A DNA stretch of 15,631 nucleotides from a virus, in IMG/VR virus record IMGVR_UViG_3300027825_000082; one strand, written 5' to 3'. The notes under the pieces were generated by a model. The model had not been told where the DNA came from. It saw only the letters and a list, made by a program, of their open reading frames with translations, and did no database searches. Positions 20 through 3,240 of the stretch are shown piece after piece; position 1 is the stretch's first letter, and every line of letters starts with the position of its first letter. Position numbers and translations under genes: made by a program.

Positions 20-93
20 TGGCTGGCACACAGGGATTCGAACCCCGATACCTTGCTCCAGAGGCAAGGGTCCTGCCGTTGAACGATGTGCCA
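20..93 (-). tRNA. tRNA-Gln (anticodon CTG), 74 nt, CCA encoded
   Basis: Manual cloverleaf: 7-bp acceptor tggcaca/tgtgcca, D stem gttc/ggac, AC stem cttgc/gcaag with loop ctCTGga, T arm cgggg-ttcgaat-ccctg, discriminator G, CCA. Confidence 0.8.
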
Positions 94-108
94 ATCTCGG
101 TTAGATGC

Positions 109-312
109 TCACTTGGCGATGTCCTTGATCTCGGACATCAGCCTGACGATCTCCGCGTCGCCGGACGCCTGCTTCACGGCCGCCTTGCCGAGCTCCTCGG
201 GCGTGGCGGTGAACGCGCTCTGCGCGGCCTCGCGCTGCCCCGGTGCCTGCATCTGCTCAAGCATCTCGTCGAACACGCCCGTCAGGTCCATGTCGAACAC
301 GTTGCACCTCAT
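109..312 (-). CDS. hypothetical small protein (67 aa) between two tRNA genes
   Basis: ATG-initiated ORF with strongly GC-rich third codon positions like the rest of the operon; no recognisable domain. Confidence 0.5.
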   Translation of the reverse strand: MRCNVFDMDLTGVFDEMLEQMQAPGQREAAQSAFTATPEELGKAAVKQASGDAEIVRLMSEIKDIAK

Positions 313-316
313 GATC

Positions 317-401
317 TGGTAGCCCCGGTAGGATTCGAACCTACGATGGATTTCTCCGCTGGTTTAGGAAACCAGTGCCTTGTCCACTAGACTACGGGGC
401 C
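317..401 (-). tRNA. atypical tRNA, anticodon CCT (Arg-type) with a 14-nt variable region, 85 nt
   Basis: Acceptor ggccccg/cggggct, D stem gtct/aggc, perfect AC stem ctggt/accag loop ttCCTaa, variable region cggagaaatccatc (gga-GAAA-tcc mini-hairpin), T arm gtagg-ttcgaat-cctac, CCA. Confidence 0.6.
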
Positions 402-406
402 AAACT

Positions 407-580
407 TTAATCCCTGTCGCGTGCGCTCTCGCGCCGCTTCTTCAGGTGGGCCGTCCACGGCTGCGGCCTTCCCGCGCCGTCTATCCATCCCCACGCGACC
501 AACCTGTCGAACAGCTCGTGCGTCTGCTTGTCGCCCGCGCTGCTGTAGATGCCTAGCCTCTTGATGTCTTGGATGTCCAT
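407..580 (-). CDS. hypothetical small protein (57 aa)
   Basis: ATG ORF (MDIQDIKRLGIYSSAGDKQTHELFDRLVAWGWIDG...) below the ORF-track size cutoff; very high GC3; weak SD. Confidence 0.4.
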   Translation of the reverse strand: MDIQDIKRLGIYSSAGDKQTHELFDRLVAWGWIDGAGRPQPWTAHLKKRRESARDRD

Positions 581-703
581 AGAAGCATCATAGCACCGGA
601 AAAACTAAACTGGTAGTCCCTGACCGTGTCGGTCGGCGCATCCGGGACCAGATGGTGAAGGGTTCCTTTTTATGAGAGGCGTCTACCCTTCGAACTTTCC
701 CTC

Positions 704-1249
704 TTACTTGTCCAGCGTGACGTTCCAGTAGAGCCACGACTCCCACTGCTTCCACTCCGGGCGCATCTTGTGGATGTGGAGCTTGAAGTTGTACTTGGGG
801 TCGCTGGCCTTCGGCTCGACAGGCTGCTTGAGGAGGTGCATGCCCGCCTCTGCGGGGGTCATGCCGCTCTTCTTCTTGTTGCAGCGCAGGCAAGCCAGGA
901 CCAGGTTCGTCCAGCTCGACACTCCGCCCTGGCAGCGCGGGACCACGTGGTCCAGCGTGTACTCGGACGTGTGCAGAACGCGTGCGCAGTACTGGCACTC
1001 CCCGTTGTCGCGGACGTAAACGTTGCGGCGCGAGAAGGGCACGGCCATGCGCTTGCGGCGGACCCAGGCGTTGCGGACCACGATCACGCGGGGCATCCCG
1101 TAGGAGAAGCTCGGCGTGTTGAGCCTGCGGCCGTCCTCGTCCTCCTTGACGACCTGCGCTCGGCCCTCGTAGAGAAGCTTGGCCGCCCGCTTCCAGGTGC
1201 AGAAGCTCTGGGGCTGCCAGTTCATGTCTAGGACCAGGATTTCGGACAT
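704..1249 (-). CDS. HNH homing-type endonuclease (181 aa) inserted inside the tRNA array
   Basis: Motifs RDNGECQYCA ... LDHVVPRCQGG ... NLVLACLRCN (CxxC / H / N / CxxC, HNH fold); start at internal ATG 1249 preceded by AGAGGAG SD 6 nt upstream; the track ORF 704..1267 has an N-terminal extension. Confidence 0.85.
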   Translation of the reverse strand: MSEILVLDMNWQPQSFCTWKRAAKLLYEGRAQVVKEDEDGRRLNTPSFSYGMPRVIVVRNAWVRRKRMAVPFSRRNVYVRDNGECQYCARVLHTSEYTLDHVVPRCQGGVSSWTNLVLACLRCNKKKSGMTPAEAGMHLLKQPVEPKASDPKYNFKLHIHKMRPEWKQWESWLYWNVTLDK

Positions 1250-1287
1250 AAATGTCTCCTCTCTCAAGGGTTTGCGAAGCCAAAATT

Positions 1288-1363
1288 TGGTGCACCGGGC
1301 GGGAGTCGAACCCGCAACCTGTCGATTAAGAGTCGAATGCTCTGCCAGTTGAGCTACCGATGC
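1288..1363 (-). tRNA. tRNA-Lys (anticodon CTT), 76 nt
   Basis: Acceptor gcatcgg/ccggtgc (one G-U), D arm gctc-aactggca-gagc, AC loop ctCTTaa, T arm gcggg-ttcgact-cccgc, discriminator A, CCA. Confidence 0.8.
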
Positions 1364-1389
1364 GCTGCTACTACAATACCACGAAAATT

Positions 1390-1468
1390 TGGTCGGCGCG
1401 GAGGGATTCGAACCCCCATCTTACCGGGTAAGAGCCGGATATGTTGAACCGTTAAACACCACGCGCCG
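1390..1468 (-). tRNA. tRNA-Lys-like (anticodon CTT), 79 nt with an 11-nt D loop
   Basis: Perfect acceptor cggcgcg/cgcgccg, D stem gtgt/acat, AC stem 4 bp (ccgg/ccgg) plus a U-U mismatch, loop ctCTTac, T arm ggggg-ttcgaat-ccctc, CCA. Confidence 0.6.
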
Positions 1469-1473
1469 AAACT

Positions 1474-1560
1474 TGGCTGGGACGAGAGGACTCGAACCTC
1501 TAGTGAGCGTAGCTCGGGAGGATCAGAACCTCCTGGGGTTGCCAATTTTCCTACGTCCCA
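1474..1560 (-). tRNA. atypical tRNA-like, anticodon CTG (Gln-type) with a 15-nt variable arm, 87 nt
   Basis: Perfect acceptor tgggacg/cgtccca, perfect AC stem ggagg/cctcc loop ttCTGat, variable arm c-GAGC-tac-GCTC-act hairpin, T arm agagg-ttcgagt-cctct, CCA; the D arm is weak (2-3 bp). Confidence 0.5.
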
Positions 1561-1640
1561 ACAACCGAAACTTGTGGGCGGGCGCTTTGGTCATCGCCCT
1601 CCTATGAACGAAGTTGCCTTCTACGTCCCCGCCCAAAACT

Positions 1641-1726
1641 TGGCTCAGGTGGTGGGATTCGAACCCACATGTCCTTTCGGAGCCGGGTTAACAGCCCGGT
1701 GCAGCGACCGTTCATGCGTCACCTGA
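1641..1726 (-). tRNA. atypical tRNA, anticodon GTT (Asn-type) with a 14-nt variable region, 86 nt
   Basis: Perfect acceptor tcaggtg/cacctga, 3-bp D stem gca/tgc with 11-nt loop, perfect AC stem ccggg/cccgg loop ctGTTaa, variable ctccgaaaggacat (tcc-GAAA-gga), T arm gtggg-ttcgaat-cccac, CCA. Confidence 0.55.
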
Positions 1727-1796
1727 ACAACGCGGTTTCCAATGTTTATCGGCTTGCGCCGGGATGGCCCGAAGGCTCAAACATCCACCGCGAAAC

Positions 1797-1871
1797 TGGC
1801 TGGGACGGGAGGACTCGAACCTCCATCTTTCACCTTAACAGGGTGACAACTTGCCGTTAGCCCACATCCCA
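1797..1871 (-). tRNA. tRNA-Asn (anticodon GTT), 75 nt
   Basis: Acceptor tgggatg/cgtccca, AC stem tcacc/ggtga loop ctGTTaa, T arm ggagg-ttcgagt-cctcc, CCA; D stem has two G-U pairs. Confidence 0.75.
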
Positions 1872-1877
1872 AAAGTC

Positions 1878-1954
1878 TGGTACCCAAGGAGGGATTCGAA
1901 CCCCCGACCTCCGCGTTCGTAGCGCGTTGCTCTAGTCCGCTGAGCTACTCAGGC
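1878..1954 (-). tRNA. tRNA-Arg (anticodon ACG), 77 nt
   Basis: Classic D arm tagctcagcggactagagca, AC loop ctACGaa, T arm ggggg-ttcgaat-ccctc, CCA; acceptor stem has three G-U pairs. Confidence 0.75.
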
Positions 1955-1964
1955 ACTTCTAAAA

Positions 1965-2039
1965 TGGCTGGGACGGTAGGACTCGAACCTACAACCATAC
2001 GGTTAACAGCCGTACGCTCTGCCATTGAGCTACATCCCA
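1965..2039 (-). tRNA. tRNA-Asn (anticodon GTT), 75 nt, fully canonical
   Basis: Acceptor tgggatg/cgtccca, D arm gctc-aatggca-gagc, AC stem tacgg/ccgta loop ctGTTaa, T arm gtagg-ttcgagt-cctac, CCA. Confidence 0.85.
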
Positions 2040-2044
2040 AAACC

Positions 2045-2119
2045 TGGAGGTCCCGGAGGGATTCGAACCCTCACTGTTCCGCGTTCGAAGCGCGGTCGAC
2101 TATCGTTGCCGACGGAACC
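2045..2119 (-). tRNA. tRNA-Arg (anticodon TCG), 75 nt
   Basis: Acceptor ggttccg/cgggacc (one G-U), AC stem ccgcg/cgcgg loop ctTCGaa, T arm gaggg-ttcgaat-ccctc, discriminator T, CCA; D arm short and irregular. Confidence 0.65.
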
Positions 2120-2125
2120 GAAATC

Positions 2126-2202
2126 TGGTGCTCGCGGGCGGATTCGAACCGCCAACCTCAGCCTTCGCAGGGCTGCGCTCTGATCCGTTGAGCTACGCGA
2201 GC
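2126..2202 (-). tRNA. tRNA-Arg (anticodon GCG), 77 nt
   Basis: Perfect acceptor gctcgcg/cgcgagc, D arm gctc-aacggatca-gagc, AC stem cagcc/ggctg loop ctGCGaa, T arm ggcgg-ttcgaat-ccgcc, CCA. Confidence 0.8.
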
Positions 2203-2205
2203 AAA

Positions 2206-2397
2206 CTAAATCTTGTACGCCACGCCGTCCTGGCCCGTGTACGTGCGGCTGACGCCGAAAATCTCCCGAGCCAGATTCCCGCGTTCGACGCAAAAGGCTG
2301 GAGCGCCCTCCCACCTTGAGCATACCGTCCCCGGCGAGGCGTTGCACCTTGGGTTAGGGCAACGAACGTCGAACGCGGGATGGTTGGACTCGACCAT
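2206..2397 (-). CDS. hypothetical Cys-containing small protein (63 aa) between tRNA genes
   Basis: ATG ORF from the track; moderate GC3 (about 70%); CPNPRC...C...C pattern; no clear SD. Confidence 0.35.
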   Translation of the reverse strand: MVESNHPAFDVRCPNPRCNASPGTVCSRWEGAPAFCVERGNLAREIFGVSRTYTGQDGVAYKI

Positions 2398-2402
2398 ATC
2401 TT

Positions 2403-2479
2403 TGGTGCCCGTGGAGGGATTCGAACCCCCGGCCGCTGCCTTCGGAGGGCAGTGCTCTGTTCCGCTGAGCTACGCGGGC
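2403..2479 (-). tRNA. tRNA-Arg (anticodon CCG), 77 nt
   Basis: Acceptor gcccgcg/cacgggc (one C-A mismatch), D arm gctc-agcggaaca-gagc, AC stem ctgcc/ggcag loop ctCCGaa, T arm ggggg-ttcgaat-ccctc, CCA. Confidence 0.75.
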
Positions 2480-2628
2480 ATCTGTTTCTCAAACGGCGCG
2501 ATCTGCTTCCCCAGCTTCGCCGCCTGCTTCGCCAAGGCCTGCTTCATGGTTCCTGGCGGAAGGTCGCTCGCGATCCTTTTCAGGTTCGCTATCTGCGCCT
2601 TCGTCTTCAGAATGTCCATCTTCTCCAT
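2470..2628 (-). CDS. hypothetical Lys-rich small protein (52 aa); its 3' end overlaps tRNA-Arg(CCG) by 10 nt
   Basis: ATG ORF (MEKMDILKTKAQIANLKRIASDLPPGTMKQ...) below the track cutoff; high GC3; GAGG SD 6 nt upstream; the overlap with a tRNA lowers confidence. Confidence 0.3.
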   Translation of the reverse strand: MEKMDILKTKAQIANLKRIASDLPPGTMKQALAKQAAKLGKQIAPFEKQMPA

Positions 2629-2648
2629 GTCAAGCCTCTCTCTAAATC

Positions 2649-2728
2649 TGGTGGACCCGGCGGGACTCGAACCCGCGTCTCCGTATGCCCGAAGGCTCCC
2701 GGCGACTCTGCCCCTGAGCTACGGCCCC
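2649..2728 (-). tRNA. tRNA-like element (80 nt) with an aberrant anticodon arm; possible pseudo-tRNA (GCC anticodon if folded canonically)
   Basis: Good acceptor (ggggccg/cgggtcc, one mismatch), D arm gctc-aggggca-gagt, T arm gcggg-ttcgagt-cccgc, CCA; the central region gccgggaGCCttcgggc has an internal G-G mismatch and forms a gcc-UUCG-ggc tetraloop instead of a 7-nt U33-containing loop. Confidence 0.45.
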
Positions 2729-2734
2729 GAACTT

Positions 2735-2810
2735 TGGGGTGAGCGAGGGGATTCGAACCCCCGACTACTGGCTCCACAGGCCAGCGTTCTGCCGCTGAAC
2801 TACGCTCACC
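2735..2810 (-). tRNA. tRNA-His (anticodon GTG) with encoded G-1, 75+1 nt
   Basis: Perfect acceptor gtgagcg/cgctcac, extra 5' G pairing with the C73 discriminator (His identity element), AC stem ctggc/gccag loop ctGTGga, T arm ggggg-ttcgaat-cccct, CCA. Confidence 0.8.
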
Positions 2811-2825
2811 ACAGCTACCCCTAAT

Positions 2826-2904
2826 TGGGGTGACGAGTGGGGGTCGAACCCACCAGAACTGGTTTCACAGACCAGTGCAACATCCCCGGAGTTGCCATCG
2901 TCAC
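2826..2904 (-). tRNA. second GTG-anticodon tRNA (His-type) without G-1, 79 nt with an 11-nt D loop
   Basis: Perfect acceptor gtgacga/tcgtcac, D stem gcaa/ttgc, perfect AC stem ctggt/accag loop ctGTGaa, T arm gtggg-ttcgacc-cccac, discriminator C, CCA; the nucleotide 5' of +1 is T, not G. Confidence 0.65.
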
Positions 2905-2943
2905 AATCTGCGCGGCGGCCGAATCACGCCACGACTTAAGCTT

Positions 2944-3019
2944 TGGCAGGGGCGGAGGGACTCGAACCCCCGTCTTACGGTTTTGGAGACCGACGTCGTA
3001 GCCGCTAGACCACGCCCCT
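2944..3019 (-). tRNA. tRNA-Trp (anticodon CCA), 76 nt
   Basis: Perfect acceptor aggggcg/cgcccct, AC stem cggt/accg loop ctCCAaa, T arm ggggg-ttcgagt-ccctc, discriminator G, CCA. Confidence 0.75.
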
Positions 3020-3035
3020 GTATGTCAAAAACCCT

Positions 3036-3068
3036 GTAAAAATGCAAAACCCGCCAGTCTTTGGCGGG
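3036..3068 (-). terminator. intrinsic (rho-independent) terminator, minus strand
   Basis: Minus-strand 7-bp GC stem CCCGCCA-aagac-TGGCGGG followed directly by TTTTGCATTTTT; the plus-strand side has only a weak T tract. Confidence 0.75.
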
Positions 3069-3240
3069 TCTGTTGATCTCGATCTTGGGAGGGTTCCTAG
3101 TTAGTTTCCCTCGTTGACAGAGAACAGACCTGCGCCGAACCAGCGGTTATTCCGCTGGCGGACATCTCCCTGATGCTTTCGGGAGACGATCGCGTTGGCT
3201 TTCCTTGAGGTCATAGGTGTTCCCTGTTCCGTACTCTCAC

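Follow-up and report, generated by a model that had tools for sequence, protein, structure and literature searches.

An ordered six-isotype tRNA array with conserved, reshaped duplicates in an uncultured phage, and its possible role when host tRNAs are damaged

The purpose of phage-encoded tRNAs has been debated for decades, and single phage tRNAs were recently shown to defeat tRNA-cleaving immunity. A tRNA-Tyr of T5-like phages overcomes retron-Eco7 and a phage tRNA-Lys overcomes PrrC170 (PMC11555353), the tRNA-Lys of T5 overcomes PARIS (PMC11464382), and escape through the anticodon loop has been proposed for mycobacteriophage tRNAs, whose presence shows no clear link to codon frequency (PMC10264068). 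Huge phages encode up to 67 tRNAs with sequences unlike those of host tRNAs (PMC7162821). Here we analyse a 15,631-nucleotide stretch of viral DNA (IMG/VR record IMGVR_UViG_3300027825_000082, hereafter the window), in which 16 tRNA genes at positions 20-3019 form an ordered array of only six isotypes that is conserved in related phages and in which ordinary tRNAs stand beside structurally altered copies; the array may serve as the phage's own tRNA supply when host tRNAs are damaged or depleted.

Gene calling with ARAGORN placed all 16 genes on the minus strand and identified them as Gln-CTG (two), Arg-CCT, Lys-CTT (two), Asn-GTT (three), Arg-ACG, Arg-TCG, Arg-GCG, Arg-CCG, His-GTG (two), Trp-CCA and a 'Gly-GCC', in agreement with an earlier note made from the sequence alone, which had counted 16 tRNAs in the same interval and listed five Arg anticodons, three Asn, two each of His, Lys and Gln, and Trp; the member it left unnamed is the doubtful 'Gly-GCC'. 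In transcription order the array reads Trp-CCA, His-GTG (79 nucleotides, nt), His-GTG, 'Gly-GCC', Arg-CCG, Arg-GCG, Arg-TCG, Asn-GTT, Arg-ACG, Asn-GTT, Asn-GTT (86 nt), Gln-CTG (87 nt), Lys-CTT (79 nt), Lys-CTT, Arg-CCT (85 nt) and Gln-CTG. With 'Gly-GCC' set aside, only Trp, His, Arg, Asn, Gln and Lys are covered, and the array reads all His, Asn and Trp codons, those Lys and Gln codons that end in G, and five Arg codons out of six. The 3' CCA is encoded in every gene (16/16), and all but two reach the gathering score of the Rfam tRNA model (14/16); these two, Gln-CTG at 1474-1560 (87 nt) and His-GTG at 2826-2904 (79 nt), both have orthologues with compensatory base changes. A permissive tRNA-model scan of the gaps within the array yielded no extra tRNA.

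With 16 genes in 3.0 kb, spacers of 5-200 nt and a single orientation, the locus has the density of a phage tRNA array, and the tight spacing together with co-orientation with the neighbouring genes suggests one precursor transcript. An identical array sequence was recovered in four independent metagenome assemblies (contigs L001-L004; relatives are designated likewise below). Since only 19 bases separate the array from the window edge, and since Lys-TTT genes follow about 0.5 kb past the orthologue of the window's last Gln gene in L187 and L191, it probably continues past window base 1, which would make 16 a lower bound.

Relatives were gathered among IMG/VR and metagenome contigs by searching with two proteins, the HNH endonuclease encoded inside the array and the RlaP-family RNA-repair nucleotidyltransferase encoded upstream of it, and about 20 kb was viewed per relative genome. 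At least eight related contigs carry the same ordered array at a distance of 2-6 kb downstream of RlaP, comprising L005/L030, L006/L029 and L028 from IMG/VR and the metagenome contigs L117 (436 kb), L118, L179, L187 (133 kb) and L191, with L113/L139 duplicating L028/L005. The consensus order is Trp, His variant, His, three to five Arg(NCG), Asn variant, Gln variant, Asn, Lys variant, Lys, HNH, Arg-CCT or Arg-TCT, Gln-CTG and Lys-TTT, and RlaP is syntenic with the array in all relatives. Distant RlaP-encoding phages either lack the array or carry unrelated broad ones. No near-identical phage was found when the array was compared by megablast with 50,697 phage records, and a distant blastn search gave generic tRNA matches only. 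As a side observation, the six isotypes coincide precisely with the amino acids that have side-chain nitrogen, and an amino-acid permease gene adjoins the array in one relative; this rule is broken in L028 by a Phe-GAA inside the array.

Non-canonical forms make up about half of the tRNA genes of the window, and relatives share most of them. Each of the six isotypes has long or odd versions somewhere in the lineage, including Trp genes of 79-88 nt, Arg-ACG genes of 85-87 nt and an 87-nt Lys-TTT. The Asn variant combines a D-stem of 3 base pairs (bp) with U1-A72, G73 and a long variable arm built as a 3-bp stem with a GAAA tetraloop cap. Comparison of its six orthologues revealed that 14 of 25 pairs had changed on both sides and were still paired, two of the three variable-arm pairs among them, and that 95% of cells were paired against 35-46% in slid controls. 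The variable arms of the variants form stems of 3-4 bp in general, which are capped by GNRA loops in the Asn variants and by UUCG or GAAA in the long-arm Arg and Trp genes.

The Gln variant has a class-II-type body with a short D-stem and a long variable arm, a combination that the Asn variant shares and that is normally limited to tRNAs for Leu, Ser and Tyr. Its anticodon loop is UUCUGAU, and its U1-A72, G2-C71, G3-C70, G73, G10, anticodon CUG, A37 and U38 are the nucleotides of the E. coli GlnRS identity set. Among four orthologues, 10 of 23 pairs carry compensatory changes and 99% of cells are paired, compared with 38-59% in slid controls. The D-arm shares a 22-nt identity with a genuine tRNA-Tyr of a Pseudomonadota metagenome-assembled genome, and the gene as a whole is slightly closer to that tRNA-Tyr (identity 0.71-0.74) than to canonical Gln tRNAs (0.60-0.69). 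This resemblance hints that the Gln variant may have descended from a tRNA-Tyr, and it is a lead on body type rather than a host assignment; a scan of bacteria with the D-arm pattern gave nine matches, about the number expected by chance, one of them in a tRNA (a tRNA-Tyr). An exact-pattern scan of viral sequences for copies of the Gln variant returned the L028 contig only.

The His variant is marked by an 11-nt D-loop, C73 and, above all, a U at position -1. Its anticodon region GUCUGUGAAAC is invariant in five lineages, and the orthologues in L006, L028, L187 and L191 show compensatory changes in 11 of 23 pairs. Canonical His genes have G at -1 in all eight lineages (8/8), and the variant has U in each of the four lineages that also carry a canonical His (4/4); in L028, which has no other His gene, the position is G. 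Since G-1 is the main identity element for HisRS, the variant is either poorly charged, or receives its G-1 later, or is unused in decoding.

The Lys variant likewise has an 11-nt D-loop, together with C1-G72 and the loop CUCUUAC (C38), a loop type seen again in L005, L179, L187 and L191. Among the Arg genes, the non-canonical Arg-TCG, with a 3-bp D-stem, a 7-nt D-loop without GG and U73, uses a scaffold common to the Arg-ACG, Arg-TCG and Arg-CCG of L028 and the Arg-TCG of L187 and L191. Arg-CCT carries a lineage-specific variable arm (GGA-GAAA-UCC); its orthologues in relatives are armless and 75-78 nt long, and the 85-nt form of the window is present in four assemblies.

In the Asn, Gln and His variants the compensatory changes fall in all arms, the variable arm included, and in view of such substitutions across lineages a reading of the non-canonical genes as pseudogenes was rejected. 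Acceptor identity elements fit the anticodon in the Gln and Asn variants (U1-A72, G73) and in the Trp variants (A1-U72, G73), and deviate from the isotype identity in the Lys (C1-G72) and Arg (U73) variants. Paralogy across isotypes, considered on the basis of raw identities of 0.77-0.81, was dismissed, as these values reflect mostly consensus D- and T-arm sequence.

Further unusual elements were observed in the relatives. A reverse class swap is seen in tRNA-Leu genes of 77-78 nt without a long arm and a tRNA-Ile(TAT) of 94 nt with one (L138 11068-11526, L137 1897-2240, L187 163-240, L179 875-968). Other tRNA-like elements have an 'anticodon' loop of only 5-6 nt, and one Lys-TTT variant of L187 lacks its three anticodon bases when compared with L191 11666-11752; these loop-truncated or anticodon-deleted elements lie at L191 7451-7518, L187 15018-15085, L028 14515-14585 and L187 20095-20178 and could be decoys or decaying copies. 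In addition, the Rfam model detects tRNA-like genes missed by ARAGORN at L029 19870-19950, L191 11484-11566 and L028 16629-16705, which have Arg YCT anticodon loops and lack a recognisable D-arm.

These odd copies might have a job separate from decoding, as substrates of a phage synthetase in a semi-private channel, as nuclease decoys or as mis-acylated recoding tRNAs. The His variant without G-1, a nucleotide that HisRS requires, and its nonetheless invariant anticodon region point in this direction, as do the tRNA-Tyr-like body and G73 of the Gln variant, the elements with 5-6-nt loops and a truncated HisRS-like open reading frame (ORF) that occupies the position of the His variant, between tRNA-Trp and tRNA-His, in L117 (16643-17191) and L130 (2790-3302). 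In contrast, acceptor and discriminator of the Gln and Asn variants fit their anticodons, all variants keep the normal 7/5 layout of acceptor and T-stem, and the truncated HisRS-like ORF was the only hit among synthetases and tRNases sought near the arrays, with no intact synthetase found. Recoding or mistranslation by the long-arm tRNAs was rejected for the same fit of identity elements, and because CAG and AAC make up 92-95% of the Gln and Asn codons of the phage, which relies on them and would itself be harmed. We consider such a separate job very improbable. The HisRS-like ORF aligns with an approximate E. coli HisRS probe over residues 25-133 and 251-315 of the latter; the Pfam family tRNA-synt_His matched one unlocated member of 73 ORFs from the relatives (E = 7.7e-16).

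The six-isotype restriction could also be a historical or positional accident, with clusters that grew by tandem duplication and anticodon change in a genome whose tRNA set is broad, and a skew without function. The anticodons of the window are indeed mutational neighbours (GUG, GUU, CUU, CUG, CCG, CCU, CCA, GCG), the single non-canonical Arg scaffold bears ACG, TCG or CCG depending on gene and lineage, the acceptor stem UGGGAYG/CGUCCCA is common to Asn, the Asn variant and the Gln variant, variable-arm hairpins such as that of the window's Arg-CCT were gained in single lineages, and the anticodon-deleted Lys copy of L187 speaks for ongoing turnover. Relatives moreover have a separate class-II cluster. 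In L028, L030, L139 and L179 it lies 6-10 kb upstream of RlaP and consists of two to four Ser genes and Leu, in some cases with Ile-TAT; in L138 it reads Leu-Ser-Ser-Tyr-Leu. The lineage thus sorts its tRNAs into clusters by type, the window showing one cluster of the genome, and the skew is a property of that cluster and not demonstrably of the whole genome.

An accident is nevertheless difficult to reconcile with the constancy of the array, as order and isotype set are held among lineages whose RlaP proteins share only 40-60% identity, which argues for selection rather than drift. The viewed loci of the array-bearing relatives showed no tRNA gene specific for Ala, Gly, Val, Asp, Glu, Thr, Met or Cys. 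The window phage has no tRNA within 16 kb upstream of RlaP and none in the 10 kb beyond the upstream end of the window, as followed on an overlapping 37-kb metagenome contig (L108), and no tRNA lies in the 8.4 kb after the array of L111. As an account of the restriction, accident appears improbable.

Codon usage of the window phage, computed from L108 together with the window genes, revealed that Lys, Asn, Gln, His, Arg and Trp make up 24.5% of its codons, with Ala, Glu, Leu, Val and Gly each commoner than any of the six. Within their own boxes AAG (0.91), AAC (0.95), CAG (0.92) and CAC (0.95) dominate, and CGC (0.46), AGG (0.26) and CGG (0.19) lead the Arg codons. As a separate observation, two-fold boxes are 91-99% G/C-ending, yet AGG accounts for 26% of Arg and ATA for 16% of Ile codons, shares that are high for a genome this rich in guanine and cytosine (GC). 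Across relatives, the six-isotype set is kept from 45 to 64% GC, and Gln-CTG and Lys-CTT are retained although the CAG share of Gln codons ranges over 0.33-0.92 and the AAG share of Lys codons over 0.43-0.97; because the set persists over this range of CAG, codon matching alone is insufficient as an explanation. Within the lineage the match between anticodon and codon fails for Gln and Lys (L028, with a CAG share of 0.33, has Gln-CTG only) and holds for the AGR-reading Arg, which tracks GC as Arg-CCT in high-GC and Arg-TCT in low-GC members.

These data bear on a plain decoding supply, by which the array would provide more tRNA for heavily used or host-poor codons and speed up late protein synthesis, with no tRNA damage involved. 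Every tRNA of the window reads a major codon of the phage, the AGG share of Arg codons is matched by Arg-CCT, low-GC relatives have Arg-TCT and Lys-TTT instead or additionally, and huge phages are often tRNA-rich, with numbers that climb with genome size (PMC7162821). Supply does not, however, explain why the six amino acids are not the most used ones, why Asn, with 3.3% of codons, has three genes and Lys, with 6.5%, has two, why Arg-TCG is retained for a codon (CGA) that makes up 2% of Arg codons, or why L028 makes do with Gln-CTG when CAA accounts for 67% of its Gln codons, and it leaves the conserved odd-bodied duplicates and the His copy without G-1 unaccounted for. As the full explanation of the array we regard it as unlikely, if less so than the alternatives above. 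The claim of the earlier note that the skew exceeds what codon compensation would need is partly supported, insofar as the set is conserved in at least eight contigs and only loosely tied to usage, and has to be restricted insofar as the AGR-reading Arg follows codons and one cluster only is concerned; judged from sequence, the skew appears partly meaningful beyond chance and codon supply.

The explanation we favour, tentatively and with a confidence that stays just short of even, is that the array is the phage's own supply of six isoacceptor families, keeping translation going when host tRNAs are damaged or depleted. During infection, tRNA-targeting defences or host shut-off would cleave, trim or deplete the host copies, and the phage-encoded copies, once expressed and charged, would replace them so that phage translation could continue. 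Beside an ordinary copy the phage often keeps a reshaped one, with a class-II-like D-arm, a variable-arm hairpin or an enlarged D-loop, to which a nuclease that recognises the normal tRNA body would presumably bind poorly, and the His variant without G-1 may act as a decoy instead. The RNA-repair neighbours fit such a role, and the structurally altered duplicates are as expected for an evasion of tRNA-targeting nucleases. This explanation and its rivals are not mutually exclusive.

A more specific version, which we rate as doubtful, is a camouflage of the tRNA body, in which the second tRNA of each isotype stands on a class-II-like scaffold that is still chargeable and goes unseen by shape-reading nucleases, the His gene without G-1 and the loop-truncated elements being decoys. 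Such a scaffold would combine a short D-stem, a large D-loop and a variable-arm hairpin capped by GNRA or UUCG with correct acceptor and anticodon identity. If true, it would constitute a counter-defence route apart from the known point mutations of the anticodon loop.

Several observations weigh against a supply that compensates for tRNA damage. Two genome scans gave no host lead. No RNA ligase family was detected among the 73 ORFs from relatives or the scanned ORFs of the window, and PADLOC returned no match for ten window proteins, a search that holds defence-system models only and therefore does not amount to a screen for counter-defence genes. The codons read by the array tRNAs are major ones of the phage itself, and its AGR-reading Arg follows GC, so that part of the set is sufficiently explained by plain supply. 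Position alone may account for the limitation to six isotypes, given the other clusters in relatives, and the proposed role does not explain why these six are present rather than Tyr or Asp. Finally, the anticodon loops of Arg (CUNCGAA), Asn, Trp and canonical Lys are ordinary; the earlier note had proposed to look for cleavage-resisting loop changes, and variant loops occur in the Lys variant (C38), in Gln (C32, G37, A38) and in His.

The same note had described the tRNA classes of the array as the very targets of known anticodon nucleases, a match that turned out to be selective. Colicin E5 also cuts Tyr and Asp tRNAs, which are absent from the array, PrrC targets Lys-UUU and the window has Lys-CUU, and no nuclease had been offered for Trp or Gln-CUG. 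C34 in the Lys and Gln tRNAs would dodge nucleases that read a modified wobble U, and would equally fit the bias towards G-ending codons. The general idea that phage tRNAs act in counter-defence is already published (PMC10264068, PMC11555353, PMC11464382).

Table 1. Positions of the array genes and of other features of the window (minus sign, minus strand).
Feature	Position	Strand	Support and remarks
tRNA-Gln(CTG), canonical body	20..93	-	ARAGORN; Rfam 52.6 bits; loop CUCUGGA (G37); last gene before window edge
Small ORF in array, 67 amino acids (aa)	109..312	-	weak similarity to ORF at same place in L006
tRNA-Arg(CCT), long variable arm	317..401	-	ARAGORN; Rfam 59.1 bits
Small ORF in array, 57 aa	407..580	-	called as gene on contigs L001-L004
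HNH endonuclease inside array, 181 aa	704..1249	-	Pfam HNH and HNH_5; phrog_16726
tRNA-Lys(CTT), canonical	1288..1363	-	ARAGORN; Rfam 67.7 bits
tRNA-Lys(CTT) variant	1390..1468	-	ARAGORN; Rfam 36.3 bits
tRNA-Gln(CTG) variant	1474..1560	-	ARAGORN
tRNA-Asn(GTT) variant	1641..1726	-	ARAGORN; Rfam 43.8 bits
tRNA-Asn(GTT), second copy	1797..1871	-	ARAGORN; Rfam 58.6 bits; 81% identity and same acceptor stem as copy 1965-2039
tRNA-Arg(ACG), canonical	1878..1954	-	ARAGORN; Rfam 57.4 bits
tRNA-Asn(GTT), canonical	1965..2039	-	ARAGORN; Rfam 72 bits
tRNA-Arg(TCG), non-canonical	2045..2119	-	ARAGORN; Rfam 44.3 bits
tRNA-Arg(GCG), canonical body	2126..2202	-	ARAGORN; Rfam 71.5 bits
Small ORF in array, 63 aa	2206..2397	-	
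tRNA-Arg(CCG), canonical	2403..2479	-	ARAGORN; Rfam 63.9 bits
Small ORF in array, 52 aa	2470..2628	-	
Doubtful 'tRNA-Gly(GCC)', tRNA-like element	2649..2728	-	ARAGORN; Rfam tRNA 35.3 bits
tRNA-His(GTG), canonical	2735..2809	-	ARAGORN; Rfam 68 bits; G-1 encoded upstream
tRNA-His(GTG) variant	2826..2904	-	ARAGORN; under Rfam gathering score
tRNA-Trp(CCA), canonical, first array gene	2944..3019	-	ARAGORN; Rfam 58.1 bits; 88% identity to L029 orthologue
Terminator-like hairpin just upstream of tRNA-Trp, marking start of array unit	3047..3071	-	consensus match only
Short HNH protein	5824-6099		
RlaP-family RNA-repair nucleotidyltransferase, about 5 kb upstream of array, co-oriented	8114..9079	-	Pfam PF10127 E = 1.5e-17; phrog_388 E = 4.8e-43
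SPFH/band-7 lipoprotein, upstream	9596-10399		beside MVP-like gene
Major vault protein (MVP)-like, shoulder and repeat domains	10478-12919		

The element called as 'Gly-GCC' was not counted as a genuine glycine tRNA. Its loop GAGCCUU (A33, U37) is defective and sits on a mismatched anticodon stem, and its acceptor stem is of the alanine type, with A73 and G3.U70, the latter being the identity mark of alanine. The variable region of 10 nt holds a GCC-UUCG-GGC hairpin. Against the tmRNA model the element scores 32.7 bits, under the threshold of 47, and no orthologue was found in the relatives outside the window lineage.

Two of the ordinary genes deserve mention. Arg-GCG, an anticodon uncommon in bacteria, has an L028 orthologue of 84% identity with the same anticodon arm, and the gene is also present in L117 and L118. 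The Gln gene at the window edge is 100% identical over 79 nt to L187 19462-19540 and L191 11108-11186, the flanks being about 70-75% and RlaP about 40% identical, and identity falls exactly at the tRNA borders; its 37-nt core had no exact match in 185,579 bacterial species genomes.

The HNH gene inside the array occupies the same position in L005, L006, L028, L117, L118, L187 and L191, with 62-69% amino acid identity in the two relatives scored. This suggests a resident gene more than one inserted recently by homing, and because homing endonucleases do not usually keep so fixed a position, the gene may have a function linked to the array. Some arrays also contain GIY-YIG-like ORFs (L117 17341-18165, L006 9298-9987).

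The window has 64% GC, and its genes, as judged from contig gene calls and inspected ORFs, lie on the minus strand like the tRNAs. The MVP-like protein shares 41% identity with proteins of the uncultured huge phages LR756500, LR756501 and LR756503 (462-kb and 735-kb phages), and ORFs with an MVP shoulder are also found upstream of RlaP in L028 and L118. The regions around the MVP homologues of LR756500 and LR756501 contain no tRNAs, and the array is hence not a feature of these two phages at that location. Phage origin follows from the IMG/VR viral contigs among the relatives, the MVP match and PHROG matches; the window itself carries no structural hallmark gene, and its assignment rests on the relatives. 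The array belongs to an uncultured phage of soil or peat whose genome is very large; to judge from their identifiers, the samples of the window and of its relatives presumably came from bog, peat or forest soil.

Downstream of the array, relatives encode the permease (L028 18025-19341), peptide deformylase and a polynucleotide kinase-phosphatase, PNKP (L005 13807-15240), or methionine aminopeptidase (L006 16836-17567, L111 10049-10849), and the array region is a translation-support block. PNKP was seen only in L005, and RlaP is present in every lineage. RlaP adds 1-2 nt to damaged RNA 3' ends and is required to restore aminoacylation of heavily damaged tRNA (PMC12776372), and in jumbo phages it co-distributes with RNA ligases (PMC7824862). 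A T4-type Pnkp and Rnl repair module was not recognised in the viewed regions, where an end-healing enzyme was found without a ligase.

Phage tRNA arrays, translation genes in huge phages and tRNA-based counter-defence are known already. A limited literature search, together with passages of PMC7162821 and PMC5389517, revealed no report of an array that is ordered, restricted in isotypes and accompanied by conserved Asn, Gln, Arg, Trp and Lys tRNAs of class-II body, nor of a His copy lacking G-1. The array provides natural matched pairs of ordinary and reshaped isoacceptors, which a whole lineage of soil phages with very large genomes has conserved. Should the reshaped copies withstand nucleases and still be charged, they would reveal which parts of the tRNA body nucleases read and could provide scaffolds for nuclease-proof or orthogonal tRNAs; should they prove uncharged, they would exemplify tRNA decoys. 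The skew concerns a single cluster in a partial view of the genome and should not be taken for the whole tRNA strategy of the phage.

Among described systems, the tRNA region of T5-like phages is similar in being a dense, co-oriented cluster with small ORFs and homing-type endonuclease genes. That region covers nearly all isotypes, whereas the present array is limited to six, often with a canonical and a body-altered copy of the same isotype; individual tRNAs of the T5-like region rescue infection when host tRNAs are cleaved (PMC11555353, PMC11464382). The huge phages of Al-Shayeb et al. (2020, PMC7162821) are alike in their very large contigs (370-436 kb among the present relatives), in an MVP-like protein and in many tRNAs together with deformylase or methionine aminopeptidase genes, and the accessible part of that work describes neither isotype-restricted ordered arrays nor class-II-bodied Asn, Gln or Arg tRNAs. 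As in the cluster of T4, tRNA genes lie beside RNA-end-healing enzymes (here RlaP, and PNKP in L005), the classic answer to anticodon nucleases (PMC7824862). Unlike in T4, RlaP is a 3' nucleotide adder and no RNA ligase was found near the array. The tRNA set of T4 is small and differs in composition.

At the level of single genes, the Gln variant recalls the su+3 mutants of E. coli tRNA-Tyr, which are mischarged by GlnRS owing to G73 and a weak 1-72 pair, in its Tyr-like body, long variable arm, G73 and weak 1-72 pair, and it differs from them in occurring naturally as a conserved gene, in its sense anticodon CUG and in having every nucleotide of the GlnRS identity set. Allo-tRNAs carry a serine identity at odds with the anticodon. 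Like the variants described here, they have long variable arms, bear anticodons outside Ser, Leu and Tyr and stem from environmental sequence, but their acceptor and T-stems are 8/4 or 9/3 (Mukai et al. 2017, PMC5389517). An assignment of the array to such mistranslating tRNAs was rejected, as all of its tRNAs have 7-bp acceptor and 5-bp T-stems and identity fits the anticodon in the Gln, Asn and Trp variants, the exception being 'Gly-GCC' with its alanine-type acceptor. The tRNA sets of mycobacteriophages (van den Berg et al. 2023, PMC10264068) have prompted the same hypothesis, of replacement tRNAs that differ from those of the host at nuclease determinants. There, point changes of the anticodon loop were recognised against known host tRNAs, whereas in the present array the alterations lie in the D-arm, the variable arm and position -1, and the loops are mostly ordinary.

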